DNA from: Thermoplasmatota archaeon | GTDB lineage: Archaea > Thermoplasmatota > Penumbrarchaeia > Penumbrarchaeales > Penumbrarchaeaceae | Length of the DNA: 43,967 bases | Assembly (NCBI GenBank): GCA_049472235.1 | Contig: JBLIRI010000003.1 | Span: 1 to 43,967, forward strand | Reading direction: 5' to 3' | Shown here: positions 3,373-31,647 of the stretch, piece after piece | Layout: every line of letters starts with the position of its first letter | Numbering within the stretch: the stretch's first letter is position 1 | The notes under the pieces: model-generated | The model's database searches: none | The model's input: only the letters and a program-made list of their open reading frames with translations | What the model was told of the DNA's origin: nothing | Position numbers and translations under genes: made by a program

Positions 3373-6330
3373 TCAGACCCCATCGCCCTCGGTGGCGGAC
3401 CTGTTCTCCTCGAGCACTTCCTTGACCTTCCTCAGGTCAAAGGCCACAAGATGGTCAGGTATGGTCGTGATGGTCCTTTCGTACTCGGAAAGGTCGCTCC
3501 TGCATCTCTTAAAAGCCTCGCGGGCCTTCTTCTTCTTTCCCCTGTCCCTGTAGTGTATTCCGAGCAGCAATTGGGTGTGGAGTGATCCCTCGATGGCGTT
3601 ATCGAACCTGTTGGGGTCCCCCCCCGTCTCCCTGATGCTCCTCAACTGGAGGTCCGCTAGCTCCCGGTAGCTTTCGATCAATCTCTCGAGCATCCCCTCC
3701 CTGGGGTCGTCCATCCTGGGATCGAGAAGGGGCAGACCTGTGGCACGGAACAGGTTCGCCCTCTCGGAGATACCAACGTTCTCCTCCAGAGCCACGGCCT
3801 GCTCTAGAAGGTCCACGAGGTTGAGAAGGTGCTCTTCCCTGTTCACGAAGGAGCCTTCCTTCGAGGTCCTTTCCAGTTCAGAGAGGGTCTCCCAGGCAAG
3901 CTGCAGGCAGGAGCATGCAAGCTCCCGGTCCTCATTCCTCCCGGCGATGTCGTATTCCCTCGCTATCGAAAGGTATCCCTTGACCACCATTCCACGGTCC
4001 TCGGGCGGGACCTGCGTGCATATGGCCCTGACCCTTTCAAGCGAGGTCCTGTCTGGGAGATCGTCGGAGAGCATGATGTCCTCGAGCTCTATCAGCGCAA
4101 GCAATCTTCTGTCTCCGATGGACCGCGAGACCTCCTTCGCCCTGTTCAGGCATTTTTGAGCCCCCTCCTCCCTGCCGATGGCCTTTGCCGACCTGAACGC
4201 CTGCAGGCAGGCATATACCTCGCCCACCCTGTCCAGGGCCTTCTCGTACTCTGACGCACTTCTGATGGCCTCCCTGTAGGCTTTCTGGGTTTCTCCCATC
4301 AGGTGGAGCGTCTTTGAGAGATGCAGTCTTTCCTTTGCGGCCCCTACCATGTCCCCCAGGGCCCCGTAGGTCTCGATGGCCTTGTTGTGAGCGGAGATCG
4401 TCTGTTCGTACCTTTTCTGGGACCTCGAGATCTTGCCCCTGATGTGTTGGAACAATGCAAGGTCCTTTCCCTTGATCCTGTTCTTCGGATATGTCGCCTC
4501 TATCAGATCGAGGGTCCTTGAAGCGGAAACCATCTCTCCCTCGACGGTTTCGATCATCGCCTTCTGCATCCGGAGGGCAAAGAGGTGTTCATCCGACAGC
4601 CGGGAGCGTTCCAGTTTGAGGATCGGACCCAGCAGTACCTTTCCCCTACCCACTCCGGACATCGTGTTCAGAAGCATCACGGTGGAGAGCGCGAGCTCCT
4701 TTTCCCCGGTCTCGATGAACCTCCCGACGGTCATGTCCAGGTAGCTCTTGAACAGGTCCCGCAGAGCGGGCTCGTCCTCGTAGACGATGGCCGAGTAATG
4801 CTCCACGATCAGGGAAGAAACTCTGTCCGATGCCCCTATCTCCCTCAATCTGTCCGGCCCGAGGAGTTCCGGACCGTCGGCCCATATCCTCAATATTACA
4901 GCCAGCTGGTAAGCGGTGATCTCATCCAGGACCCTTCTCCTTTCCTCGGTCGGAATGGTGGTCTTGAGGTGGTCGGAGATGATATCATGGATGAACAGCA
5001 GACCGCCCCTGATCTCTCTGAGCAACCCCTTCCTCTCAAGAATGTCGATGTCTTCCGATGATGTCCTGCCGACGAGGGAGCGGTGGACGGGGACGCCGGC
5101 GAGAGCCGCGAGCTTCAGCACGTTCTTCTGTTGGGGCGGGAGGGGGGCAAGGACCTCCTGGTCCAGGAACTCTCCGAACCGGGTCCTTCCGGCTGCACCC
5201 ATCGCGCTCGTTATCAGCTCGATATGAAGCGGGTGCCCCTTCGTCATGTCCCATACCGCGCCTATGTCTCCGCCCTTCCCCGTCTCCTTGATCATCAGTG
5301 CCACCGACTTCAGGTCCAGACCCTTCAGCTCGAGGGTCCTGACACTTCCCTGAACCTCGTATCGCGGGTCCAGGAAAGAAGGGCGCTCCCTGGTCAGAAT
5401 GATCACCTTCAGCCCCGGGACCTCCATTGAGGTCTTGCAGAGCCCTTCCATGTAAACGTCAAGTCCTCCCCCGGTCTTCTGCAGGTCATCTATTATCAGC
5501 GTCAATCCCTTTGCGGAGGATGCCACCGATCTGATCCTGCGGGCCAGCTGCCCCGGGGAGACATCATCCTTGAGAAGTTCCATTGCATCCTCCTCGAATC
5601 CCATCTGGGACAGGACCCAGGAGATCTCGTTTGCAAGCTCCACCCTGTCCGTCCAGGGTTCGCAGCGAATGTACCCGGTCTTCTGGGTCGATTCCGACAT
5701 TCCCTTGAGCACGAGAGATGTCTTCCCCATGCCTGCGAGCCCCCATATGATGAGGACCCCGGACCTGGACCGGAGATAATCCTCGATGAAGGAGAGCTCT
5801 TCTTCCCTCCCGAAGAAGTGGACGGGCATCTGGTAGTTCCCGAAAAGCGAGGGCCCTTCTCTCAACGGCTCCCAGCCTGGGGTGAGATCGACGGGCTGGT
5901 CCTTCTTGCTCCTGTGAAGGTACAGCTCCGCCAGGGTTAGCCCGATCCCCGCTTCCCTTGCTTTCCTGTATGCGCGCAGAAGGGGGGCCCTGCTCATCTC
6001 CCCGTCCACAACGACCATTATGGACAGCTGCTCGAGTTGCGCCCTCAAGCCTTCGACCACCCGCTCGCCTTTCTGGGTCAGGAAATATGCCTTCTGCCTT
6101 CGTTTCTCTCCCTTCACGTGCTTGAGGGTGGAATCCACGAGTTCGTCCGCGGTCAGCCGCTTGAGGGAGCGCGAAACGTTGTTCTCGAGGATGCCCAGCC
6201 TCTTGGCAAGCCCCTTCTGGGACACTTCCTGGGGGACGTCCCAGAGGTCCCTTTTCCCCGAGAATTCCGAGAGGAAGAGAAGGATCTGCTCGTCCGAGTG
6301 TAGCTTAGTTCGCTTGATGCCTGCCTTCAA
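3373..6330 (-). CDS. wHTH (MarR-like) + STAND/NB-ARC-type NTPase + TPR transcriptional regulator (~985 aa)
   Basis: N-terminal SQKGLAKRLGILENNVSRSLKRL...KAYFLTQKG winged HTH; FFGREEEL, Walker A GLAGMGKT, Walker B LIIDD, sensor ILTRE, GHPL motif; helical TPR-like C-terminal half. TTG at 6330 with an AGGTG RBS is preferred over GTG 6363, which overlaps the upstream gene. Confidence 0.85.
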   Translation of the reverse strand: MKAGIKRTKLHSDEQILLFLSEFSGKRDLWDVPQEVSQKGLAKRLGILENNVSRSLKRLTADELVDSTLKHVKGEKRRQKAYFLTQKGERVVEGLRAQLEQLSIMVVVDGEMSRAPLLRAYRKAREAGIGLTLAELYLHRSKKDQPVDLTPGWEPLREGPSLFGNYQMPVHFFGREEELSFIEDYLRSRSGVLIIWGLAGMGKTSLVLKGMSESTQKTGYIRCEPWTDRVELANEISWVLSQMGFEEDAMELLKDDVSPGQLARRIRSVASSAKGLTLIIDDLQKTGGGLDVYMEGLCKTSMEVPGLKVIILTRERPSFLDPRYEVQGSVRTLELKGLDLKSVALMIKETGKGGDIGAVWDMTKGHPLHIELITSAMGAAGRTRFGEFLDQEVLAPLPPQQKNVLKLAALAGVPVHRSLVGRTSSEDIDILERKGLLREIRGGLLFIHDIISDHLKTTIPTEERRRVLDEITAYQLAVILRIWADGPELLGPDRLREIGASDRVSSLIVEHYSAIVYEDEPALRDLFKSYLDMTVGRFIETGEKELALSTVMLLNTMSGVGRGKVLLGPILKLERSRLSDEHLFALRMQKAMIETVEGEMVSASRTLDLIEATYPKNRIKGKDLALFQHIRGKISRSQKRYEQTISAHNKAIETYGALGDMVGAAKERLHLSKTLHLMGETQKAYREAIRSASEYEKALDRVGEVYACLQAFRSAKAIGREEGAQKCLNRAKEVSRSIGDRRLLALIELEDIMLSDDLPDRTSLERVRAICTQVPPEDRGMVVKGYLSIAREYDIAGRNEDRELACSCLQLAWETLSELERTSKEGSFVNREEHLLNLVDLLEQAVALEENVGISERANLFRATGLPLLDPRMDDPREGMLERLIESYRELADLQLRSIRETGGDPNRFDNAIEGSLHTQLLLGIHYRDRGKKKKAREAFKRCRSDLSEYERTITTIPDHLVAFDLRKVKEVLEENRSATEGDGV

Positions 6331-6341
6331 TGGAACACCTT

Positions 6342-7304
6342 TCAAACCCGTTTTTCCAGCCACCTCGAGGTCTCTCTCAGGCCTTCCCTGAGCTCCGTTG
6401 CATCCTCCTGAAAGAGCTTTTCCCTGAGCGATCCGACGTCGGCAACGGACCTGACGATCTCCCCCTTCCTTTCCGGAAGATACACCTTTTTCAGCTCCTT
6501 TCCCGATATCCTGGCAACCGCATCTGCAAGTTCGTTCACAGTGGTTTCCCTTCCGGTCGCCACGTTCAGCGTCCCGGTGAGGTCCGAGGAAGCGGCCTTG
6601 ATCAGGACCTCGGCCACGTCCTTGACGAATATGAAGTCCCGTGTCTGCTCGCCGTCACCGTAGATCAACAGCGGCTCCCCTTTGACGGAGCGGTGGATGA
6701 ACTTCGATATCACCCCGCAATATGGATTGTCGGGGTCCTGCCTGGGGCCGAAGACATTGAACAGCCTCGCGGCGACGTACTTCAACCCGTACTGCTGGCG
6801 GTATATCTCCATCAGACGCTCCGAGGCCATCTTGTGAAGGCCGTAGGGGGACATCGGCTCAAGCGGGGCCCCTTCATCTGTGGGAAGCCGGTCCGTGTCC
6901 CCGTAGACGGCGGCAGAGGATGTGAAAACGACCTTCCTGGCCCCGGACCTTGCCGCGTGGTCCAGGACGTTCATGGTTCCCAGATAGTTGACCTCGAGAT
7001 CGAGCCTGGGATCCAGGAAGGATGAGGTCACGTCCACCCTTGCCGCGAGGTGGAATATGGTCGAGATCGGTGGCCCGCCCCCGAGTTTTGAGGGGGTAAG
7101 CGCATGGTCGAGAGGGACCCTGATGTCTCCCTGGATGAACCGGAAGTTGTCCTCCGAGAGCCAACCCTGGATGTTTTCCATCTTCCCTGTGGAAAGGTCG
7201 TCCAGGACATAGACGATGTGACCGGTCTCCATGAGCAGATCAACAAGATGCGAACCAATGAAACCGGCGCCGCCAGTTACGAGGACTCCCTGTTCCCTCA
7301 TCAT
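6342..7304 (-). CDS. NAD-dependent epimerase/dehydratase (UDP-glucose 4-epimerase-like extended SDR)
   Basis: VTGGAGFIGSHL Rossmann motif, HLAA, SSAAVYG, catalytic YGLHK (YxxxK), RLFNVFGPRQ, GDGEQTRDF. Confidence 0.92.
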   Translation of the reverse strand: MMREQGVLVTGGAGFIGSHLVDLLMETGHIVYVLDDLSTGKMENIQGWLSEDNFRFIQGDIRVPLDHALTPSKLGGGPPISTIFHLAARVDVTSSFLDPRLDLEVNYLGTMNVLDHAARSGARKVVFTSSAAVYGDTDRLPTDEGAPLEPMSPYGLHKMASERLMEIYRQQYGLKYVAARLFNVFGPRQDPDNPYCGVISKFIHRSVKGEPLLIYGDGEQTRDFIFVKDVAEVLIKAASSDLTGTLNVATGRETTVNELADAVARISGKELKKVYLPERKGEIVRSVADVGSLREKLFQEDATELREGLRETSRWLEKRV

Positions 7305-8021: not shown

Positions 8022-8846
8022 CTCCCTGGCATAGTTCTCATCCCCGCCAGGGGTCTCAAGGACCATCGGAATGCCGGCGAACCTCCCATCCTTCACCAGC
8101 AGGGAGAAACCCCCGATCCCGATCTCTCCCTCCCCTATCCCTGCATGCCTGTCAACCTTCGACCCGCTCGATCGAAGTGAATCATTTATATGAAATGCCC
8201 TGAGGGCCCCGAGGCCAAGGATATCATCGAAGTTCCGCATCGTTCTCTCATATCCCGCTGGTTCCGAGATGTCATAGCCCGCAGCGAACACGTGGCAGGT
8301 ATCCAGACAGACCCCGATCCTTTCGGGCATGGAAGCCCCGTCCCTGATTTCCGCAAGCTCCTCGAAACTGCCCCCAAGACCGGAGCCCTGCCCCGCCGTG
8401 GTTTCCAGGAGGACGGTCACCCTTTCCCCGCTTTCAACATCATCGAGTCCGGAGAAAGAAAGCTCCAGCCCTTCGATCACCCTTTCGATCCCTTCCTTGA
8501 CCCCCGAGCCGAGATGGGACCCCGGATGGGTCACAAGATAGGGTATCCCGAGCATCGAACAGCGCATCAGCTCAACTTTGAACCCTTCAACGGACCTCTC
8601 GAACGCTTCCTTTCCGGGGGCCGCGAGGTTTATCAGGTAGGGATCGTGGGCCAGGACCGGCCCGATACCGGAAATGGAAAGCTTCTCTTTGAAAAGCCTG
8701 ACCTCTTCATCCTTCAGTGGAGGGGCGCTCCACTGCCTTTGGTTCCTTGTGAAGATCTGGAAGGTATCGCAGCCAAGTTCAAGGGCCCTGGCTACGCTGT
8801 TGTGAATCCCACCGGCGATGCTGACGTGGGCTCCGAGAATGGGCAT
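7989..8846 (-). CDS. nfo: Endonuclease IV (AP endonuclease)
   Basis: MPILGAHVSIAGG start, QIFTRNQRQW, HDPYLINLA, HPGSH, LLETTAGQG, CLDTCHVFAAGYD, HINDS, DRHAGIGEG, LETP metal-ligand motifs. Confidence 0.95.
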   Translation of the reverse strand: MPILGAHVSIAGGIHNSVARALELGCDTFQIFTRNQRQWSAPPLKDEEVRLFKEKLSISGIGPVLAHDPYLINLAAPGKEAFERSVEGFKVELMRCSMLGIPYLVTHPGSHLGSGVKEGIERVIEGLELSFSGLDDVESGERVTVLLETTAGQGSGLGGSFEELAEIRDGASMPERIGVCLDTCHVFAAGYDISEPAGYERTMRNFDDILGLGALRAFHINDSLRSSGSKVDRHAGIGEGEIGIGGFSLLVKDGRFAGIPMVLETPGGDENYARELSLLRSLSVG

Positions 8847-26111: not shown

Positions 26112-26525
26112 TCATTTCCTCCGGACCTTCTGGTACGGCCTGTCGGGAAGGTCGCCCTTGAAGAGACATTTCGTGCACCGGTAGGTATTGTATGATTTCG
26201 AGATCGTGGTCGAGCCGCAGAGGGGGCATTTGTACTCGAGAAGCGACCCGTCATTTTCAAGGAACTCGCGCACCTTGGCCATGTTGATCTTCCAAAGGTT
26301 CGCATCCTTGGGGGTCTCCTCATCCCTCCTCGGCTCGATGATCCCGATATTGTAGAGGTACATGGTGATGTCCCTGCCCTTGACGAGACGGGTTGCATAC
26401 TTGTCGAATATCCTCTGGACCGTCACGCTCTTCTCATCGGTGAACTTCTCGGCCAGCATCTCCATGATGGAGCGCACGACCTCGTTGCTGTGTTCATCCA
26501 TGTGAGACTGCATACCCATCACCAA
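26112..26525 (-). CDS. Hypothetical protein with a C-terminal zinc ribbon (possible wHTH N-terminus)
   Basis: CPLCGS...YRCTKC; host-like codon usage; exact start uncertain. Confidence 0.65.
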   Translation of the reverse strand: MVMGMQSHMDEHSNEVVRSIMEMLAEKFTDEKSVTVQRIFDKYATRLVKGRDITMYLYNIGIIEPRRDEETPKDANLWKINMAKVREFLENDGSLLEYKCPLCGSTTISKSYNTYRCTKCLFKGDLPDRPYQKVRRK

Positions 26526-26605: not shown

Positions 26606-27262
26606 TCACCGTCCTAGAAATTTCCCGATCAAACCGGGTAGGAGGCCCAGGTCAGGGGTGGAAATGACGTTGTCGGCAGCCTCGGAAACCTTCAGGACCT
26701 CGGGTCTGAAGGCGATGGAAAGGTCGGAGAGTTCGAACATCGAGATGTCAACGATGGAATCACCCACAACAACCACGGGTCCTAGACCGTCGTTCTCCGA
26801 TATTATGGACCGCAGGACCGATCCCTTGTCCATCAACGGAACCCGCAGTATGCCTTCCCCCGTAAGGTTCCCATCGGGGTCGGTCGCAAGGCCGTTTGCC
26901 GATACGTGGCTGAATCCACCTTTCTTCCCGAGCCTGTGGGCGAGAATGTCCAATCCCCCGCTGACTATTGCGAGGGTTGCCCCCCAATCCCTCAGTTGGT
27001 CCATGCATCCCATGAACCCGTCCATGAGGGTCGCCTTCTCGAGGATGATTTCTATCTCGGAAGACCTCGTGACCCTCTTTCTCATCCAAAGGTCGATGTC
27101 CCGCCTCATGAACTCCAGATCGTCGATCTCGCCCTTCATGTAGGCCGCAAACGAATCCTCGTTGGAGGTTCCCAGTTTTTCGTGAACGAGCCTCCAGGAG
27201 CTCCTTTCATGGATGAGGACGCCATCCATATCGAACACAACGAGAGGTTTGCGATGATCCAT
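26606..27262 (-). CDS. HAD-IB hydrolase, phosphoserine phosphatase-like (~218 aa)
   Basis: VVFDMDGVL motif I, IVSGG motif II, DKG, VGDSIVD motif IV; true start ATG 27262, since the longer ORF runs into the SRP RNA. Confidence 0.88.
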   Translation of the reverse strand: MDHRKPLVVFDMDGVLIHERSSWRLVHEKLGTSNEDSFAAYMKGEIDDLEFMRRDIDLWMRKRVTRSSEIEIILEKATLMDGFMGCMDQLRDWGATLAIVSGGLDILAHRLGKKGGFSHVSANGLATDPDGNLTGEGILRVPLMDKGSVLRSIISENDGLGPVVVVGDSIVDISMFELSDLSIAFRPEVLKVSEAADNVISTPDLGLLPGLIGKFLGR

Positions 27263-27301
27263 GGTCCTACCGGCCAAAACAACGGGAACCAGGCCGGCAC
27301 G

Positions 27302-27615
27302 GGTGGACGCCCTGGTCCGCCGCCGGTAACTCCTCGTGACTCCTCCGTCCCGGCTCCCAACGAGCGTTGGGAGTCTACGGTTAGGCTGCTCCCTTCCGGG
27401 CCTGACCCGGTACCCATAGTCAGGACATCGATACGGCCCTCCGGCCGCACCTGGTGTCTCCTCCAACCCCGAGGGACGTTACTTCATCGTCGTCTCTCGG
27501 ACCGGCGGTGTACTGGTTGCGCCGCCCCATGTCTGTCGTCCCGCTGTAGACCGTATTGCGGCGCGCCGTTAAGCGCGAGGGAGGGCCTAGCTCCCCGACC
27601 TAGCCTGGCGTCCCC
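27302..27615 (-). ncRNA. ffs: Archaeal signal recognition particle (7S) RNA
   Basis: Minus strand contains the helix 8 signature CCGGGUCAGGCCCGGAAGGGAGCAGCCUAACC; terminal helix GGACGCC (5') pairs with GGCGUCC (3'); helix 6 GCGGCC-GGAG-GGCCGU; ~310 nt; TATA box just upstream. Confidence 0.93.
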
Positions 27616-27819: not shown

Positions 27820-28254
27820 ATGGCCGATGACGGGGGCGAGAACGACACTTCCAATTTTGAGAACATGAGCATCCGGGAGTTCGATATCACGGATGAGTTC
27901 ACTGCCGTGGAAAAGACCACACCATGCAGGGACCTGGCTAAGAAGCTCCTGGAGGTCCCAAGGGGGGCGATCTTCCTTCTGGACGACGAAGGGATACCCG
28001 TGGGCGCGGTAACTGCAAGGGAGTTCCTCATAGCAACGGCCAAGGGCATGGAGGTCCAGGACAAGACCGCCGAGGACCTCATGAACACCAATATCATGGA
28101 GATAGGCGTCGAGGACAATATCTCCGAGGTTCTCCTCAAGATATCCAAGTACGCTCCGTATGCCGTGGTGGTCAAGGACAAGGACGGCAAGTTCGTGGGT
28201 TATTTCTCACCCAAGGACTACCACGAGGCCCTCCAGAAGACCGGCGTTATCTGA
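27820..28254 (+). CDS. CBS-domain pair protein
   Basis: LLDDEGIPVGAVTAREF and VVKDKDGKFVGYFSPKD CBS motifs; GGAGG RBS. Confidence 0.88.
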   Translation: MADDGGENDTSNFENMSIREFDITDEFTAVEKTTPCRDLAKKLLEVPRGAIFLLDDEGIPVGAVTAREFLIATAKGMEVQDKTAEDLMNTNIMEIGVEDNISEVLLKISKYAPYAVVVKDKDGKFVGYFSPKDYHEALQKTGVI

Positions 28255-28472
28255 CAAGGCCATATTATTCCGGTCGGATAGGCCTGTTCAGGCTTGATCA
28301 TTACAGGTATATGGCCATTTTCAATTCTCGATGATCGTTTCAGGATATTTCAGCTCAAGGACCGAACGATATGGTGTTCTGCCTCCGAACGGACCGATCT
28401 CGGCATTGACCTTAAAAAACAAATAATGAGAAATTCATCAATATCGATCATGGGGGATCGAAATTGAACGAC

Positions 28473-28961
28473 ATGTCTATGATCAGAAAAGCCGCCAATA
28501 CTTCGATATTGCTTTTCATCCTCTGTTTTGCCGCTCTCATTCCAGGATGCTACAAACCCGATACCCCCGATTATGAGTATTGCGAGTTCATCCTTGTAAT
28601 GGACAAGGTCGATTCCAGAACAACTGCCGGGAATGAGACCGTTTGGGATGCGTATTTCACGATAGATGCGATCGAGCCGGCGGATTATCAACCCGAATGG
28701 ACGAAAATAGAGATCCAGGTGTTCCGCGGCGGTGAATGGGGGGGACATATCGGCATAAAGGAAGTGAAGAAGTTCAATTTCACTCCGGGGGACGAACCCG
28801 AGGTATGGTATGAGGACCTCACAGGTCAGCCTGCGATAGCTGAAGTACTTGATTCCTTTATAATAACCGGAATGAGTGAGAGCTTTGAGGGGGGAAGGTT
28901 CATCGTCTACTACGATGAGAGCAAGGCCTGCGAGTTCGGGCTCCCTGTCGATCTCACATAG
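28473..28961 (+). CDS. Putative lipoprotein (~162 aa), beta-rich
   Basis: Basic N-terminus, hydrophobic stretch, then LIPGC lipobox-like motif; visibly AT-richer codons than neighbours. Confidence 0.7.
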   Translation: MSMIRKAANTSILLFILCFAALIPGCYKPDTPDYEYCEFILVMDKVDSRTTAGNETVWDAYFTIDAIEPADYQPEWTKIEIQVFRGGEWGGHIGIKEVKKFNFTPGDEPEVWYEDLTGQPAIAEVLDSFIITGMSESFEGGRFIVYYDESKACEFGLPVDLT

Positions 28962-29027
28962 TTCGACCAGATCTCCACGCTGTACGATATACAATGAAAC
29001 ATTTTGAAAGCGATCCGGATCGTACCT

Positions 29028-29069
29028 TCATGAGAAGATCAGGAAAAGCGCTGCCACCAGGTTTCCGAT
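29028..29069 (-). pseudogene. Displaced duplicate of the last 14 codons of the prepilin peptidase gene (att-like direct repeat)
   Basis: 35/42 identity to 30011-30052 with a perfect 17-bp core AGGAAAAGCGCTGCCAC; encodes IGNLVAALFLIFS* versus IGNIVAALFLLFS*. Confidence 0.85.
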
Positions 29070-29232
29070 GAGCTGTACGGACCTCCCTGAAAAAAAATCG
29101 GGGACGGGGGTCGATATAGTTATGAGAACTATGGCTCAGATCCGCTTATTGGATATACTCTTGGGGATAATGGCCATAAGACCATCGGACCTTCCCTAAT
29201 TTGCCAGCGATCGGTATCGATCAGAAATAATA

Positions 29233-29376
29233 TCAAGAGTTCTTTTTAAAAAGATCATGATGCTTTTTTCTCACTCTTGCAAGTTCTTTCTTCTCCAGAG
29301 AGATATCATCTTGATACCTTTTGGACAGTTCGGCTCTGACCTTCCTCTGGAACGCAACGCAGTCAAAATTGGTCAT
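29233..29376 (-). CDS. Small basic protein (47 aa), putative antitoxin or partner of the PIN protein
   Basis: Read manually: MTNFDCVAFQRKVRAELSKRYQDDISLEKKELARVRKKHHDLFKKNS; GGAGGT RBS; overlaps the PIN stop; FDxVxxxRxxRxxLS pattern recalled from small genes downstream of this PIN subfamily. Confidence 0.72.
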   Translation of the reverse strand: MTNFDCVAFQRKVRAELSKRYQDDISLEKKELARVRKKHHDLFKKNS

Positions 29377-29824
29377 CCAATACCTCCATAGGGGTCCGTA
29401 TTTCGATCATCTGATATCCCATCTTGAGATTGATAGCGTTGTAATACCTGATCCTTTTATAATTGACTACATGTTTGAAGTTCCATGATACCAATAGATC
29501 AACCCTGTTGATAGTACCAATGGCGATATGCTGTGCATCCGCAAGGGATCCCTTGCCCAGAACACCTTCTGCCATATATTCCCCGGCGAGGCCAATGGCG
29601 TCATCGCTCAATGTCACGAATTCGATCCACTTATCAGCGATTTCCTTGTAGCTATTCTTGATCTTGGGAGGTGCTTCTTCGAGTTCTTTGATGGTCAGAT
29701 CGGAAATCACCGCGATCTTCTTTCCTTTTTTAAATTCTTCGAACAATCTCAATGAAGGTTCGGAGAATTCCTTATCGAAGCATCCTCCGATCACCGAAGT
29801 ATCCACGTAGGTTCTGTATTTCAC
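29363..29824 (-). CDS. PIN-domain (VapC-like) nuclease toxin (~153 aa)
   Basis: YVDTSVIGGCFD, ISDLTIKEL, DAQHIAIG, LVSWNFKH acidic PIN motifs; likely start GTG 29824. Confidence 0.9.
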   Translation of the reverse strand: MKYRTYVDTSVIGGCFDKEFSEPSLRLFEEFKKGKKIAVISDLTIKELEEAPPKIKNSYKEIADKWIEFVTLSDDAIGLAGEYMAEGVLGKGSLADAQHIAIGTINRVDLLVSWNFKHVVNYKRIRYYNAINLKMGYQMIEIRTPMEVLDDQF

Positions 29825-30010
29825 GAAGAAGAATACGGCTATGACCATAATAACATTTTGATGACCCATTTGATACCATCGATTTGAGAATTCTTCTCTT
29901 GAAGTGAACACATCCTTTGCAAACGTGAGAAGAGGTAGGGCATAAAGGTATTGAGATAACAAATGGGGCCGGGGATCCCCTTCGAATGGGTATCGATCAG
30001 CTGGAAGAGT

Positions 30011-30937
30011 TCACGAGAACAAGAGGAAAAGCGCTGCCACAATGTTCCCGATCACCATGTGGATGACGAAACCAGCAGTAAGCGATAGTATGAAAGGTAT
30101 CTTCGGGCTCACCCTCACCCTTTTCACCCCGTCTTTCCACAGTCTTTTGATCAGTTTCTCCGTGGGATCCTTCTTCTCCTTCTTCCCGTCCTTTTCGATA
30201 ACCACCCACACATGGGCCCCCTTGAGGTCGTCGACGTTCATATTGTAACCTGTGAAGGAATAGAGCGAGAACTCCCCCTTGATGATGTTCCGTACGGGGA
30301 GTATGATGAACATGGCCAGTGCCGTCACAACTGCGGCATTGAAAAGGACCGACAGGGAAACCGGGAATATCCTTGCCATTGCGGGAATGTCCCCCAGTAT
30401 CTCGTAGAACGGTCCTGTCTGGAACGGGATGTCGAGCACATACCACGGGAACAGGGCCGATAACGCTATCAGGCATTTCGCATCCGCCCCTCCGTGGATT
30501 ATCCTCGTTCCCCCTATCGGTACGGAATAGAGGGCGAAGTAGATCAGCATGAACACGAAGGATACCCCTATCTCCACGAAAAGCTCCCTGTCCCCAAGGA
30601 AGAATGCGAGGAGCCCACCGGCAGCTGCTGCCAGATAGAACAGGAAGAAGAATATGTCAACGAGCTTTCCCTTCAACGCTTCCTTCAGCTCCGGGTATCC
30701 GTAGAGGACGAAGAGTATGCCCGCAAGCGGGAGCAGGAGAGAAAGGAAGCTGATCGGGCTCTCGTCCGCCCCCCTAAGGTACATCTCCCATACTGTAAGG
30801 GGCCCCGCCCCGAGCACCATGAGCAGCCAGAACCTGTCCGGAATCCGCCGGTATTTCAGGTCCATGATGGAGCTGCCCGCAAGGGTGATGAGAACCGCGG
30901 CCATCTTTGCCGCCGAGATCATCTGGAGGGTCTCCAT
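30011..30937 (-). CDS. flaK: Prepilin/preflagellin peptidase (A24, FlaK/PibD type)
   Basis: SIMDLKYRRIPD and GGADAKCL catalytic aspartates, multi-TM, C-terminal VRVSPKIPFI; ATG 30937 with GAGGTG RBS. Confidence 0.9.
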   Translation of the reverse strand: METLQMISAAKMAAVLITLAGSSIMDLKYRRIPDRFWLLMVLGAGPLTVWEMYLRGADESPISFLSLLLPLAGILFVLYGYPELKEALKGKLVDIFFFLFYLAAAAGGLLAFFLGDRELFVEIGVSFVFMLIYFALYSVPIGGTRIIHGGADAKCLIALSALFPWYVLDIPFQTGPFYEILGDIPAMARIFPVSLSVLFNAAVVTALAMFIILPVRNIIKGEFSLYSFTGYNMNVDDLKGAHVWVVIEKDGKKEKKDPTEKLIKRLWKDGVKRVRVSPKIPFILSLTAGFVIHMVIGNIVAALFLLFS

Positions 30938-30948
30938 CAACCGCCACC

Positions 30949-31647
30949 TCATTCTCCTTCGAGCATCTCAATGGCTTTTTTCCGTATTATCCTGGCCTGT
31001 GTCGGATTGATCCCATCTATGGAGGAAATGTCCCCGACACCTGCTCTTGCAATCTTTTCAACGGTATCATAACCGCCATCTATCAGCAGCCTCGCCCTCT
31101 CCTGGGGGATGCCGACCTCCTTTGTCAGCAGGAGTATCCTTCTGGTATCGTCCCTGTAATCGCTGACATCCTTCACGCCCCTTTCACGGATCTTCTTGAG
31201 GACGTCCATGGTGGGGGTCGTCGCCTGGGGCGAGCTCCAGTCGGTATTCTCTCCATCGAACTTCACGGAAACGGCTCCGGCTGCTTGACCTTCCTTGGCC
31301 TTCTCCCCCTCGATCATCTCCAGCTCGGCCCCCTCCTCGGAGAGCTTGACCGCCGTGCCCATAAGGAGCATTTCAGGGTTTCCCGCCGCGTCCCTGGAGA
31401 GCTTTCCTTCGACCTTGACGACGGCATCCCCTCCAAGTTTCTCCCCGGAAGACCTCAAACCGCTCTCGGCCGCCCTAAAGAGCGCCTCGAAATCCTCGGA
31501 AGCATCCTTCCACGGGGTCTCCTCCCCATTCAGATCAAGTACTGGCTTGCCCCTTTTCCCCTTCTTCACTGAGGCATATCCGTAGGCTATGCCAAGGGTG
31601 CTCTCGATCCTTCGGCCCGGGATGATGTTCAGGTTGGTCAGTATCAA
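30949..31647 (-). CDS. YbjQ/UPF0145-like domain fused to a C-terminal helix-hairpin-helix domain
   Basis: MILTNLNIIPGRRIESTLGIAYG...GEKLGGDAVVKV...MGTAVK (YbjQ-like); LIDGGYDTVEKIARA...IDGINPTQARII (HHH_5-like). Confidence 0.78.
   Translation of the reverse strand: MILTNLNIIPGRRIESTLGIAYGYASVKKGKRGKPVLDLNGEETPWKDASEDFEALFRAAESGLRSSGEKLGGDAVVKVEGKLSRDAAGNPEMLLMGTAVKLSEEGAELEMIEGEKAKEGQAAGAVSVKFDGENTDWSSPQATTPTMDVLKKIRERGVKDVSDYRDDTRRILLLTKEVGIPQERARLLIDGGYDTVEKIARAGVGDISSIDGINPTQARIIRKKAIEMLEGE

Follow-up and report, generated by a model that had tools for sequence, protein, structure and literature searches.

How does a lone pair of toxin- and antitoxin-like genes come to lie between two copies of the end of a host gene? 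The question is raised by a locus in a 43,967-nt stretch of DNA from a Thermoplasmatota archaeon (GenBank assembly GCA_049472235.1, contig JBLIRI010000003.1), hereafter the window, where the last codons of a prepilin peptidase gene recur about 1 kb downstream and a PIN-domain gene with a 47-aa partner lies between the two copies. The answer that we favor, with some reserve, is that an integrase-less mini-element of 0.98 kb recombined into the 3′ end of the peptidase gene.

A repeated gene end around a two-gene cassette

A repeat finder places the duplication at 29027-29069 and 30010-30052, as a 43-nt direct repeat with 36/43 (84%) identical positions, a spacing of 983 nt, and a perfect 17-nt core. 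Read on the minus strand, 30011-30052 encodes IGNIVAALFLLFS-stop, the true end of the 313-aa peptidase open reading frame (ORF) at 30011-30952, and 29028-29069 encodes IGNLVAALFLIFS-stop, a displaced gene end with a stop codon of its own. Copy A (30010-30052, minus strand; attL-like) is continuous with the gene body and supplies the functional last 13 codons and stop, and copy B (29027-29069, minus strand; attR-like) is the displaced end. The initial annotation had described the recurrence as 42 nt, 35 of them identical around a 17-bp core, and had stated that the differences preserve coding sense; both descriptions hold. The seven base differences are spread over five codons, three of which are changed synonymously and two by I/L swaps, and the stop is kept.

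When the 700-nt flanks on either side of the cassette were compared, the repeat scored 43.0 bits (E 5.5e-8), against 21.8 bits for a reversed flank and at most 27.6 bits in 200 shuffles. The core 17-mer occurs exactly twice in the 1.93-Mb assembly and not at all in a backwards control. Chance is excluded as the source of the repeat. Outside the 43 nt, the next best match between the flanks is 12 nt; because similarity ends so sharply, copy B is not the tip of a long decayed peptidase paralog, the old tandem duplication that the initial annotation had named as an outcome that would refute its reading.

A second short direct repeat (29210-29224 and 29986-30000, 14/15 identical) sits just past the peptidase stop and just past the stop of the 47-aa ORF. 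Its 12-nt exact part, GGTATCGATCAG (29212-29224 and 29988-30000), is not colinear with the 43-nt repeat and was treated as chance, being near the expectation of about 0.5 matches that we estimate for a 12-mer in 4 kb.

The two gene ends appear to have been held to their coding sense. Among 200,000 simulations of seven random substitutions in 42 nt, a fraction of 4.5e-4 kept the stop and gave only I/L/V/M swaps, which supports the idea, already put forward for both ends at the protein level, that selection acted on both copies. An uninterrupted core of 17 nt is, taken alone, unremarkable (p = 0.14). The displaced copy is closer to the genus consensus (NLVA-LFLIF) than the functional copy is; the gene end reads LGNLVAALFLIF in genome G006 and ...LFLIFQ in G001 and G004. 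If the exchange took place within the core, each copy would be a hybrid of resident and incoming arms.

The target gene matches Pfam Arc_PepC_II with 39.8 bits (cut-off 29.9) and Peptidase_A24 with 20.7 bits, under the cut-off, and has orthologs in 38/41 genomes searched. It had been labelled flaK. The assignment to the archaeal A24 peptidases stands, but the NCBIfam FlaK_Arch equivalog is matched with 43 bits against a cut-off of 330, and archaeal A24 prepilin/preflagellin peptidase is therefore the safer name.

That the DNA between the copies came from elsewhere is indicated first by comparison with relatives. The peptidase gene converges on a CBS-domain gene (27820-28254 in the window, plus strand; Pfam CBS) across a gap of 2-169 nt in 15 of the 19 loci compared from relatives, among them all five from the same genus. 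In the remaining four, other genes follow the peptidase gene and its end is not repeated. The gap in the window is 1756 nt, and the PIN gene, the 47-aa ORF, and a lipoprotein-like ORF in that gap are absent from the peptidase site in all 19 loci. The arrangement is thus not common to all relatives, which would have spoken against an insertion: the cassette is found in 0/19. The insert itself (29070-30010, 941 nt) has a guanine-plus-cytosine (GC) content of 43.4%, the lowest in the window, where windows of the same size average 56.3% (sd 3.2%), and it is compositionally foreign. As first described, it holds no gene besides the PIN gene and its partner, and neither of the two encodes a recombinase domain.

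Second, there is one contig, 234 nt long and from a related strain (identity about 89% over 30010-30125; depth 5.35), that connects 30010 with 28976. It skips 1033 nt (28977-30009), cassette included, and leads from the peptidase end to the end of the lipoprotein gene. Beyond the lipoprotein stop it carries about 50 unaligned letters and 15 aligned ones, a length that matches the 66 nt by which this stop is separated from that of copy B; the letters between the aligned parts are marked as not known. We read this contig as an empty allele, in which case copy B would mark the original gene end and 28962-29026 would presumably be the ancestral intergenic stretch 3′ of it, as the contig coordinates suggest.

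The lipoprotein-like ORF (28464-28961, plus strand, 165 aa, 49.4% GC, no family) lies outside the cassette. Homologs are limited to 5/41 genomes, counting its own, and none of the other genomes of the genus has one. No repeat was found to flank this ORF, which is a second lineage-specific addition to the peptidase-CBS gap, separate from the cassette. The empty site had been predicted to be peptidase next to lipoprotein gene. One short contig has this form, but the conserved neighbor in relatives is the CBS gene, and since the lipoprotein-like ORF is lineage-specific, adjacency to it is not the ancestral state at the species level. A possible third, older copy of the peptidase end between the lipoprotein ORF and the CBS gene (28255-28470), which would have made the lipoprotein gene an earlier cassette, was rejected, as its scores were reached by 440/500 and 91/500 shuffles.

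Assembly of the right junction was checked with short Logan contigs of public runs, whose cover has gaps notably at 29505-29651 and 29907-30009. Three studies yielded exact contigs that run from the lipoprotein end through copy B into the spacer with 0 differences (X1 and X2 over 28914-29158, X3 over 28909-29201). We conclude that the cassette is an insertion. The proposal that the peptidase gene is an attB-like target agrees with the empty sites and the displaced end, but not in the sense of a recurrent attB, since in the data examined the gene was used as a target once.

Read from the peptidase gene, the cassette opens with a non-coding leader of 185 nt (29825-30009, minus strand, 42.5% GC) that has no conserved ORF and presumably contains a promoter; in related modules, 60-140 nt upstream of the PIN start is all that is common between genomes. 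The PIN gene follows (29363-29824, minus strand). An over-long ORF of 199 aa was discarded in favor of a 153-aa protein starting at the GTG at 29824, because homologs have 150-157 aa and their N-termini agree with this start. The family comprises 4654 homologs of about 150 aa, some labelled PIN or VapC by their sources, in which D8, E47, and D96 are invariant and D109 nearly so. Pfam PIN gives 13.1 bits (E 0.15), under the cut-off of 23.6, and the family profile has 0 matches among solved structures at E <= 1. The AlphaFold2 model (pLDDT 89) has VapC toxins of Shigella, M. tuberculosis, and Pyrococcus as its top Foldseek matches (TM 0.55-0.66), and the predicted protein combines a PIN fold with the conserved acidic active-site residues; a VapC-like toxin is the likely product. 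Distribution is patchy among relatives, with family members in 14/41 genomes and 58% identity to the best relative. The closest homologs in a protein listing are 85% and 69% identical; the best in a scan of metagenome loci is 56% identical, and the contigs of the 85% and 69% homologs were not among the results of that scan.

The 47-aa partner gene (29233-29376, minus strand), a putative antitoxin gene, overlaps the end of the PIN gene by 14 nt and matches no Pfam, NCBIfam, or PADLOC family. A small ORF follows the PIN gene in 10/10 relatives' loci and in 150/152 loci overall, and alignment of the partners gives a common motif, F-D-x-V...R-x-I-R. Modelled together, PIN protein and partner reach an ipSAE of 0.86 in three runs, compared with 0.05 for the best of three controls, with a partner pLDDT of 85. 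On calibration, 58/80 solved complexes and 2/110 mismatched pairs reached the mark, figures that apply only roughly to alignments of our own making. The partner is predicted to contact PIN residues 8-14, 42-47, 91-96, and 114-117, over the active site. The models support a toxin-first toxin-antitoxin pair, which would presumably be a working system. A non-coding spacer of 163 nt (29070-29232, minus strand), unlike the peptidase gene, separates the partner gene from the displaced gene end.

Repeat-bracketed PIN modules in other genomes

Four modules from relatives in the same archaeal family (G003, of the same genus, G010, G014, and G017) have in common a segment of only about 650-730 nt, which extends from a point 60-140 nt upstream of the PIN start as far as the partner stop, and their surroundings differ. 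Copies of one motif lie to either side of each of the four; for G003 and G010 it is a tRNA-Met(CAT) gene's 3′ end, which recurs five to six times downstream of the tRNA (locus L207, G003:C94, 3100-7400; locus L208, G010:C31, 8000-15400). Between the copies in G010 lie units of ~180 nt with similar ends, an AbiEi/AbiEii pair, an ORF for a 964-aa secreted protein, a HicAB pair, and the PIN module. These tRNA-Met repeats are an accretion array in this archaeal family.

Since repeats bracket the PIN modules of relatives, a wider survey was made of 80 genome and 79 metagenome loci, with counts based on 94 distinct modules that have at least 700 nt on both sides. Same-strand matches between left and right flank exceed 27.6 bits, the maximum of the reversed-flank control (0/94), in 29/94 modules. 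After de-replication at 90% nucleotide identity, 28/91 clusters are bracketed, from bacteria as well as archaea. Pseudo-modules shifted by 1.6-2.2 kb within the same loci are bracketed in 9/122 cases. With 3.3-kb flanks, 17/44 single-module loci exceed the control maximum of 31.5 bits; eight of these have repeats spaced 666-968 nt apart, four have a spacing of about 1.7 kb, and the other five one of 2.4-4.2 kb. One of the shifted control windows (L070, about 5600-7200, Flavobacteriales) is bracketed by a 94-nt, 90% repeat and could represent a further bracketed cassette, 2 kb away from the PIN module.

The bracketing repeats differ in sequence from locus to locus and are 16-358 nt long. A host ORF that extends into a repeat usually does so with its 3′ end, and the genes so affected encode a histidine kinase, Cas6b, adenine deaminase, an M28 peptidase, a molybdopterin oxidoreductase, an ABC ATPase, and SRP54. 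Some loci are compound. Loci L092 and L136 are tandem arrays of the PIN module itself; in bacteria, a histidine kinase gene end occurs in triplicate around the PIN module and a classical VapC cassette (L105), a Cas6b gene end, again present three times, encloses the module together with a TumE pair (L158), and a HEPN/nucleotidyltransferase (HEPN/MNT) pair shares one bracketed insert with the module (L053). L177 has its PIN module within a 4.1-kb insert, at whose far end a truncated C39 peptidase ORF is fused in frame with the displaced SRP54 (ffh) 3′ end (8131-8406, plus strand).

Codons that differ between repeat copies were pooled over the 17/30 entries with an automatically assigned host ORF of at least 100 codons, the other 13 being dropped for lack of one. 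Synonymous changes number 51 and non-synonymous ones 33. The synonymous share (51/84, 61%) compares with 25% for random change and with 40-47%, by our own rough expectation, if the functional copy alone were selected, and the excess is suggestive.

Routes of acquisition

The islet had been read in the initial annotation as an integrase-less satellite or a reduced remnant at a gene 3′ end, and the empty sites, the foreign GC content, the contig that skips the cassette, and the simulation all support such a reading. The mini-element would consist of the leader, the VapC-like PIN toxin gene, the overlapping antitoxin-like gene, the spacer, and one copy of the peptidase end. Incoming DNA, as a small circle or borne on an element, would have brought its own last 13 codons and stop, and would have been exchanged inside the shared sequence, most simply in the 17-nt identical core. 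Such an exchange would leave the peptidase gene intact with copy A and shift the resident end about 1 kb downstream as copy B. The joining would have been the work of a site-specific recombinase supplied in trans or, alternatively, of recombination between a circle and the target over short homology. The end state, attL, toxin-antitoxin pair, and attR, would be that of a cis-mobilizable or decayed integrative element. The pair would be retained because its loss frees a stable toxin, and addiction of this kind may be the reason that the cassette survived.

Such cassettes could be the last survivors of eroded elements, their gene pairs protected by addiction as in the streamlining model of PMC13617665, or mini-cassettes that move with helpers in trans. 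The evidence leans to mini-cassettes, because insert sizes cluster tightly near the minimum, the scanned ORFs have no recombinase domains, and the cargo of the arrays is mostly toxin-antitoxin pairs. We would extend this tentatively to the view, which we regard as possible though doubtful, that lone toxin-antitoxin pairs, with the PIN and small-ORF family foremost, form a cross-domain class of minimal (0.7-1 kb) integrase-less cassettes, captured, stacked in tandem, and exchanged at carried copies of host gene ends or tRNA ends by recombinases in trans or by short homology. If true, there would be an integron-like cassette economy with neither attC nor a linked integrase, which would account for the entry of lone toxin-antitoxin islets into chromosomes.

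Several observations weigh against recombination of a mini-element into the gene end. The assembly has no PF00589 integrase match, although at 65% completeness this absence is weak evidence, and the integrases of G003 and G010 are on other contigs than the PIN modules. No integrase or parent element with matching site specificity was found, nor a second element at the peptidase gene end in the 19 relatives' loci, and no recombinase domain was detected in 26 ORFs scanned from nine bracketed loci, host genes included. The empty allele is represented by one 234-nt contig of ~89% identity, and no independent exact contig covers the left junction (29907-30009). Some repeats elsewhere, at 200-358 nt, exceed the usual att identities, and the synonymous share of 61% is not decisive; the host ORFs behind it were picked automatically.

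Of the traces of mobility that had been suggested for checking, a larger recombinase-bearing element at the same site was found in no relative, and the single match of the 17-bp core in viral contigs has unrelated flanks and is due to chance. No circular junction or excision was seen in the short Logan contigs. The PIN family is rare on known vehicles, with three loci in viral contigs and four plasmid records. Two established kinds of mobile DNA were considered and rejected. Against a transposon or insertion sequence, there is no transposase, none of 16 inverted-repeat pairs lies at the insert ends, and the repeat is 43 nt long and imperfect. Against an integron cassette, the repeat is peptidase coding sequence with its stop, and no tyrosine recombinase was found in the assembly.

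Among the alternatives to the mini-element, a long target duplication fares best and is still unlikely. Here an unknown mechanism would copy 20-350 nt of the target, giving copies that are identical at first, the functional one then being selected and the displaced one neutral. The wide range of repeat lengths (16-358 nt) suits this explanation, as do the 100% identical repeats in L139/L140 and L090 and the 280-nt repeat in L032, which covers one gene's end, the spacer, and the next gene's start and leaves both genes intact, as a target duplication would. It does not suit the peptidase locus, where none of the five changed codons goes beyond a synonymous change or an I/L swap and the stop is intact, an outcome as rare as the simulations indicate, and the pooled synonymous changes exceed the 40-47% that we would expect under it. 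The insert ends have no transposase or terminal inverted repeats, and the three-copy arrays of L105, L158, and tRNA-Met fit repeated use of one site.

It is quite unlikely that the cassette and both copies arose in another lineage and arrived as a whole islet by homologous recombination in the flanking genes. A route of this sort has been proposed for toxin-antitoxin islets in the available text of PMC13617665, and the sampled habitats also harbor a related strain that lacks the cassette. The import would account for the presence of the islet but not for the origin of the repeat, and no donor with the cassette at the peptidase gene is found among the 19 relatives' loci.

Spread by a homing-like process would make the PIN protein a nuclease that cuts empty alleles, with repair then copying the cassette along with a gene end so recoded that it can no longer be cut. 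Such behavior is shown by free-standing endonuclease genes located in the mitochondrial genes of fungi. Consistent with this, a nuclease gene adjoins a recoded duplicate gene end, and the family is very widespread (4654 matches). We nevertheless hold it to be very improbable, as unrelated pairs (HicAB, AbiE, TumE, HEPN/MNT) occur in the same bracketed arrays and the architecture is therefore not tied to this PIN protein, targets are wholly different between loci, the nearest folds are those of RNA-cutting VapC toxins, and the partner is modelled over the active site, as for antitoxins.

An artefact, whether a coincidental repeat or a chimeric contig, is hardly credible: the uncovered left junction would allow it, but the repeat scores 43 bits where 200 shuffles reach 27.6 at most, it is in frame with stops aligned, exact contigs of three studies bridge the right junction, an identity of 17 nt is probably too short to mislead an assembler, and the same architecture recurs at 28/91 other loci.

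Farther from the cassette, the window contains an archaeal signal recognition particle (SRP) RNA gene (27287-27610, minus strand; Rfam RF01857, 132 bits, full length), which confirms the archaeal domain and is the reason that many unrelated metagenome contigs align to 27371-27417. A 286-aa “HAD” ORF (26606-27466) overlaps this gene, so its true start is probably the internal MDHRK near 27262. The 137-aa ORF at 26112-26525 (minus strand) has a sub-threshold Pfam “Recombinase” match (19.6 bits, cut-off 21.1) and a zinc-ribbon-like C1_2 match, and is too short for a serine recombinase.

Relation to known systems

Taken singly, the locus is closest to decayed or cis-mobilizable integrative elements and adds one small case to this known kind, situated at the 3′ end of a gene; the recurrent, cross-domain, mostly toxin-antitoxin and integrase-less architecture is the part worth following. 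The initial annotation knew of no prepilin peptidase gene described as an archaeal integration site, and in the openly accessible full-text literature we found none described as an archaeal attachment site, nor lone toxin-antitoxin pairs described as a recurrent class of repeat-bracketed cassettes.

In a published model, integration is followed by decay to a cis-mobilizable element (CIME) that keeps attL and attR, and by accretion at the gene-end site (Guedon et al. 2017, PMC5704250, in its accessible sections). The favored reading of the locus matches this three-step decay-and-accretion model. With the CIMEs of that text it shares direct repeats kept as attL and attR, with no integration or transfer genes inside, and tandem arrays formed by reuse of one site are seen at tRNA-Met in relatives and in L105 and L158. 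As in CIMEs, one of the bracketing repeats completes the target gene and relatives have empty sites. In the 65%-complete assembly and the relatives' loci, no element was found whose integrase recognizes the same site and that could have been its parent or have mobilized it. The cassette also differs in its size of 0.98 kb, in carrying only a toxin-antitoxin pair, in being archaeal, and in having no known parent element or integrase of matching specificity, whereas the CIMEs described in those sections derive from identified families of ICEs (integrative conjugative elements) or IMEs (integrative mobilizable elements) in Firmicutes.

Protein genes are already known as archaeal targets: according to the available part of a 2019 study (PMC6563490), 14/68 thaumarchaeal elements are integrated into 3′-distal parts of protein genes. 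There too the protein gene 3′ end is the attachment site and the element supplies a new end and stop. Unlike the cassette, the elements covered there are proviruses, casposons, and conjugative or cryptic elements, mostly with their own integrase, and a prepilin peptidase figures as cargo of conjugative elements, not as target. The present locus and its relatives add to the archaeal record an attachment site in a protein gene and, within the same family, an accretion array at tRNA-Met.

In content the cassette resembles VapBC type II systems in its PIN fold and acidic residues, in a partner predicted over the active site, in overlapping genes, and in a patchy, mobile distribution. It differs in that the toxin gene comes first, with the partner downstream (150/152 loci), and in that the partner, of ~45-70 aa, belongs to no known antitoxin or DNA-binding family (AbrB, RHH, PHD, and the like). 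The PIN family also has no solved structure by sequence profile, and this copy is under the Pfam PIN cut-off. Integron cassettes are likewise small, promoter-poor units, often toxin-antitoxin pairs, in tandem between repeated recombination sites; here the repeats are host gene or tRNA ends that vary by genome and not attC hairpins, and there is no adjacent integrase.

A further counterpart is provided by the lone toxin-antitoxin islets between core genes, whose origin Belot et al. (2026, PMC13617665), in the text available, call unclear and propose to be element-mediated acquisition followed by streamlining. The islets of that text, too, are lone pairs between conserved genes with no mobile-element genes. 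PMC13617665 reports no flanking repeats (the term “direct repeat” occurs 0 times in the text), whereas the peptidase locus preserves the insertion scar intact and so gives a direct view of polarity, boundaries, and the imported gene end. A comparable scar surrounds about 30% of related cassettes, from many phyla and both domains. This makes the acquisition route testable and provides a simple signature to search for, a two-gene cassette with a duplicated gene end on its flanks.

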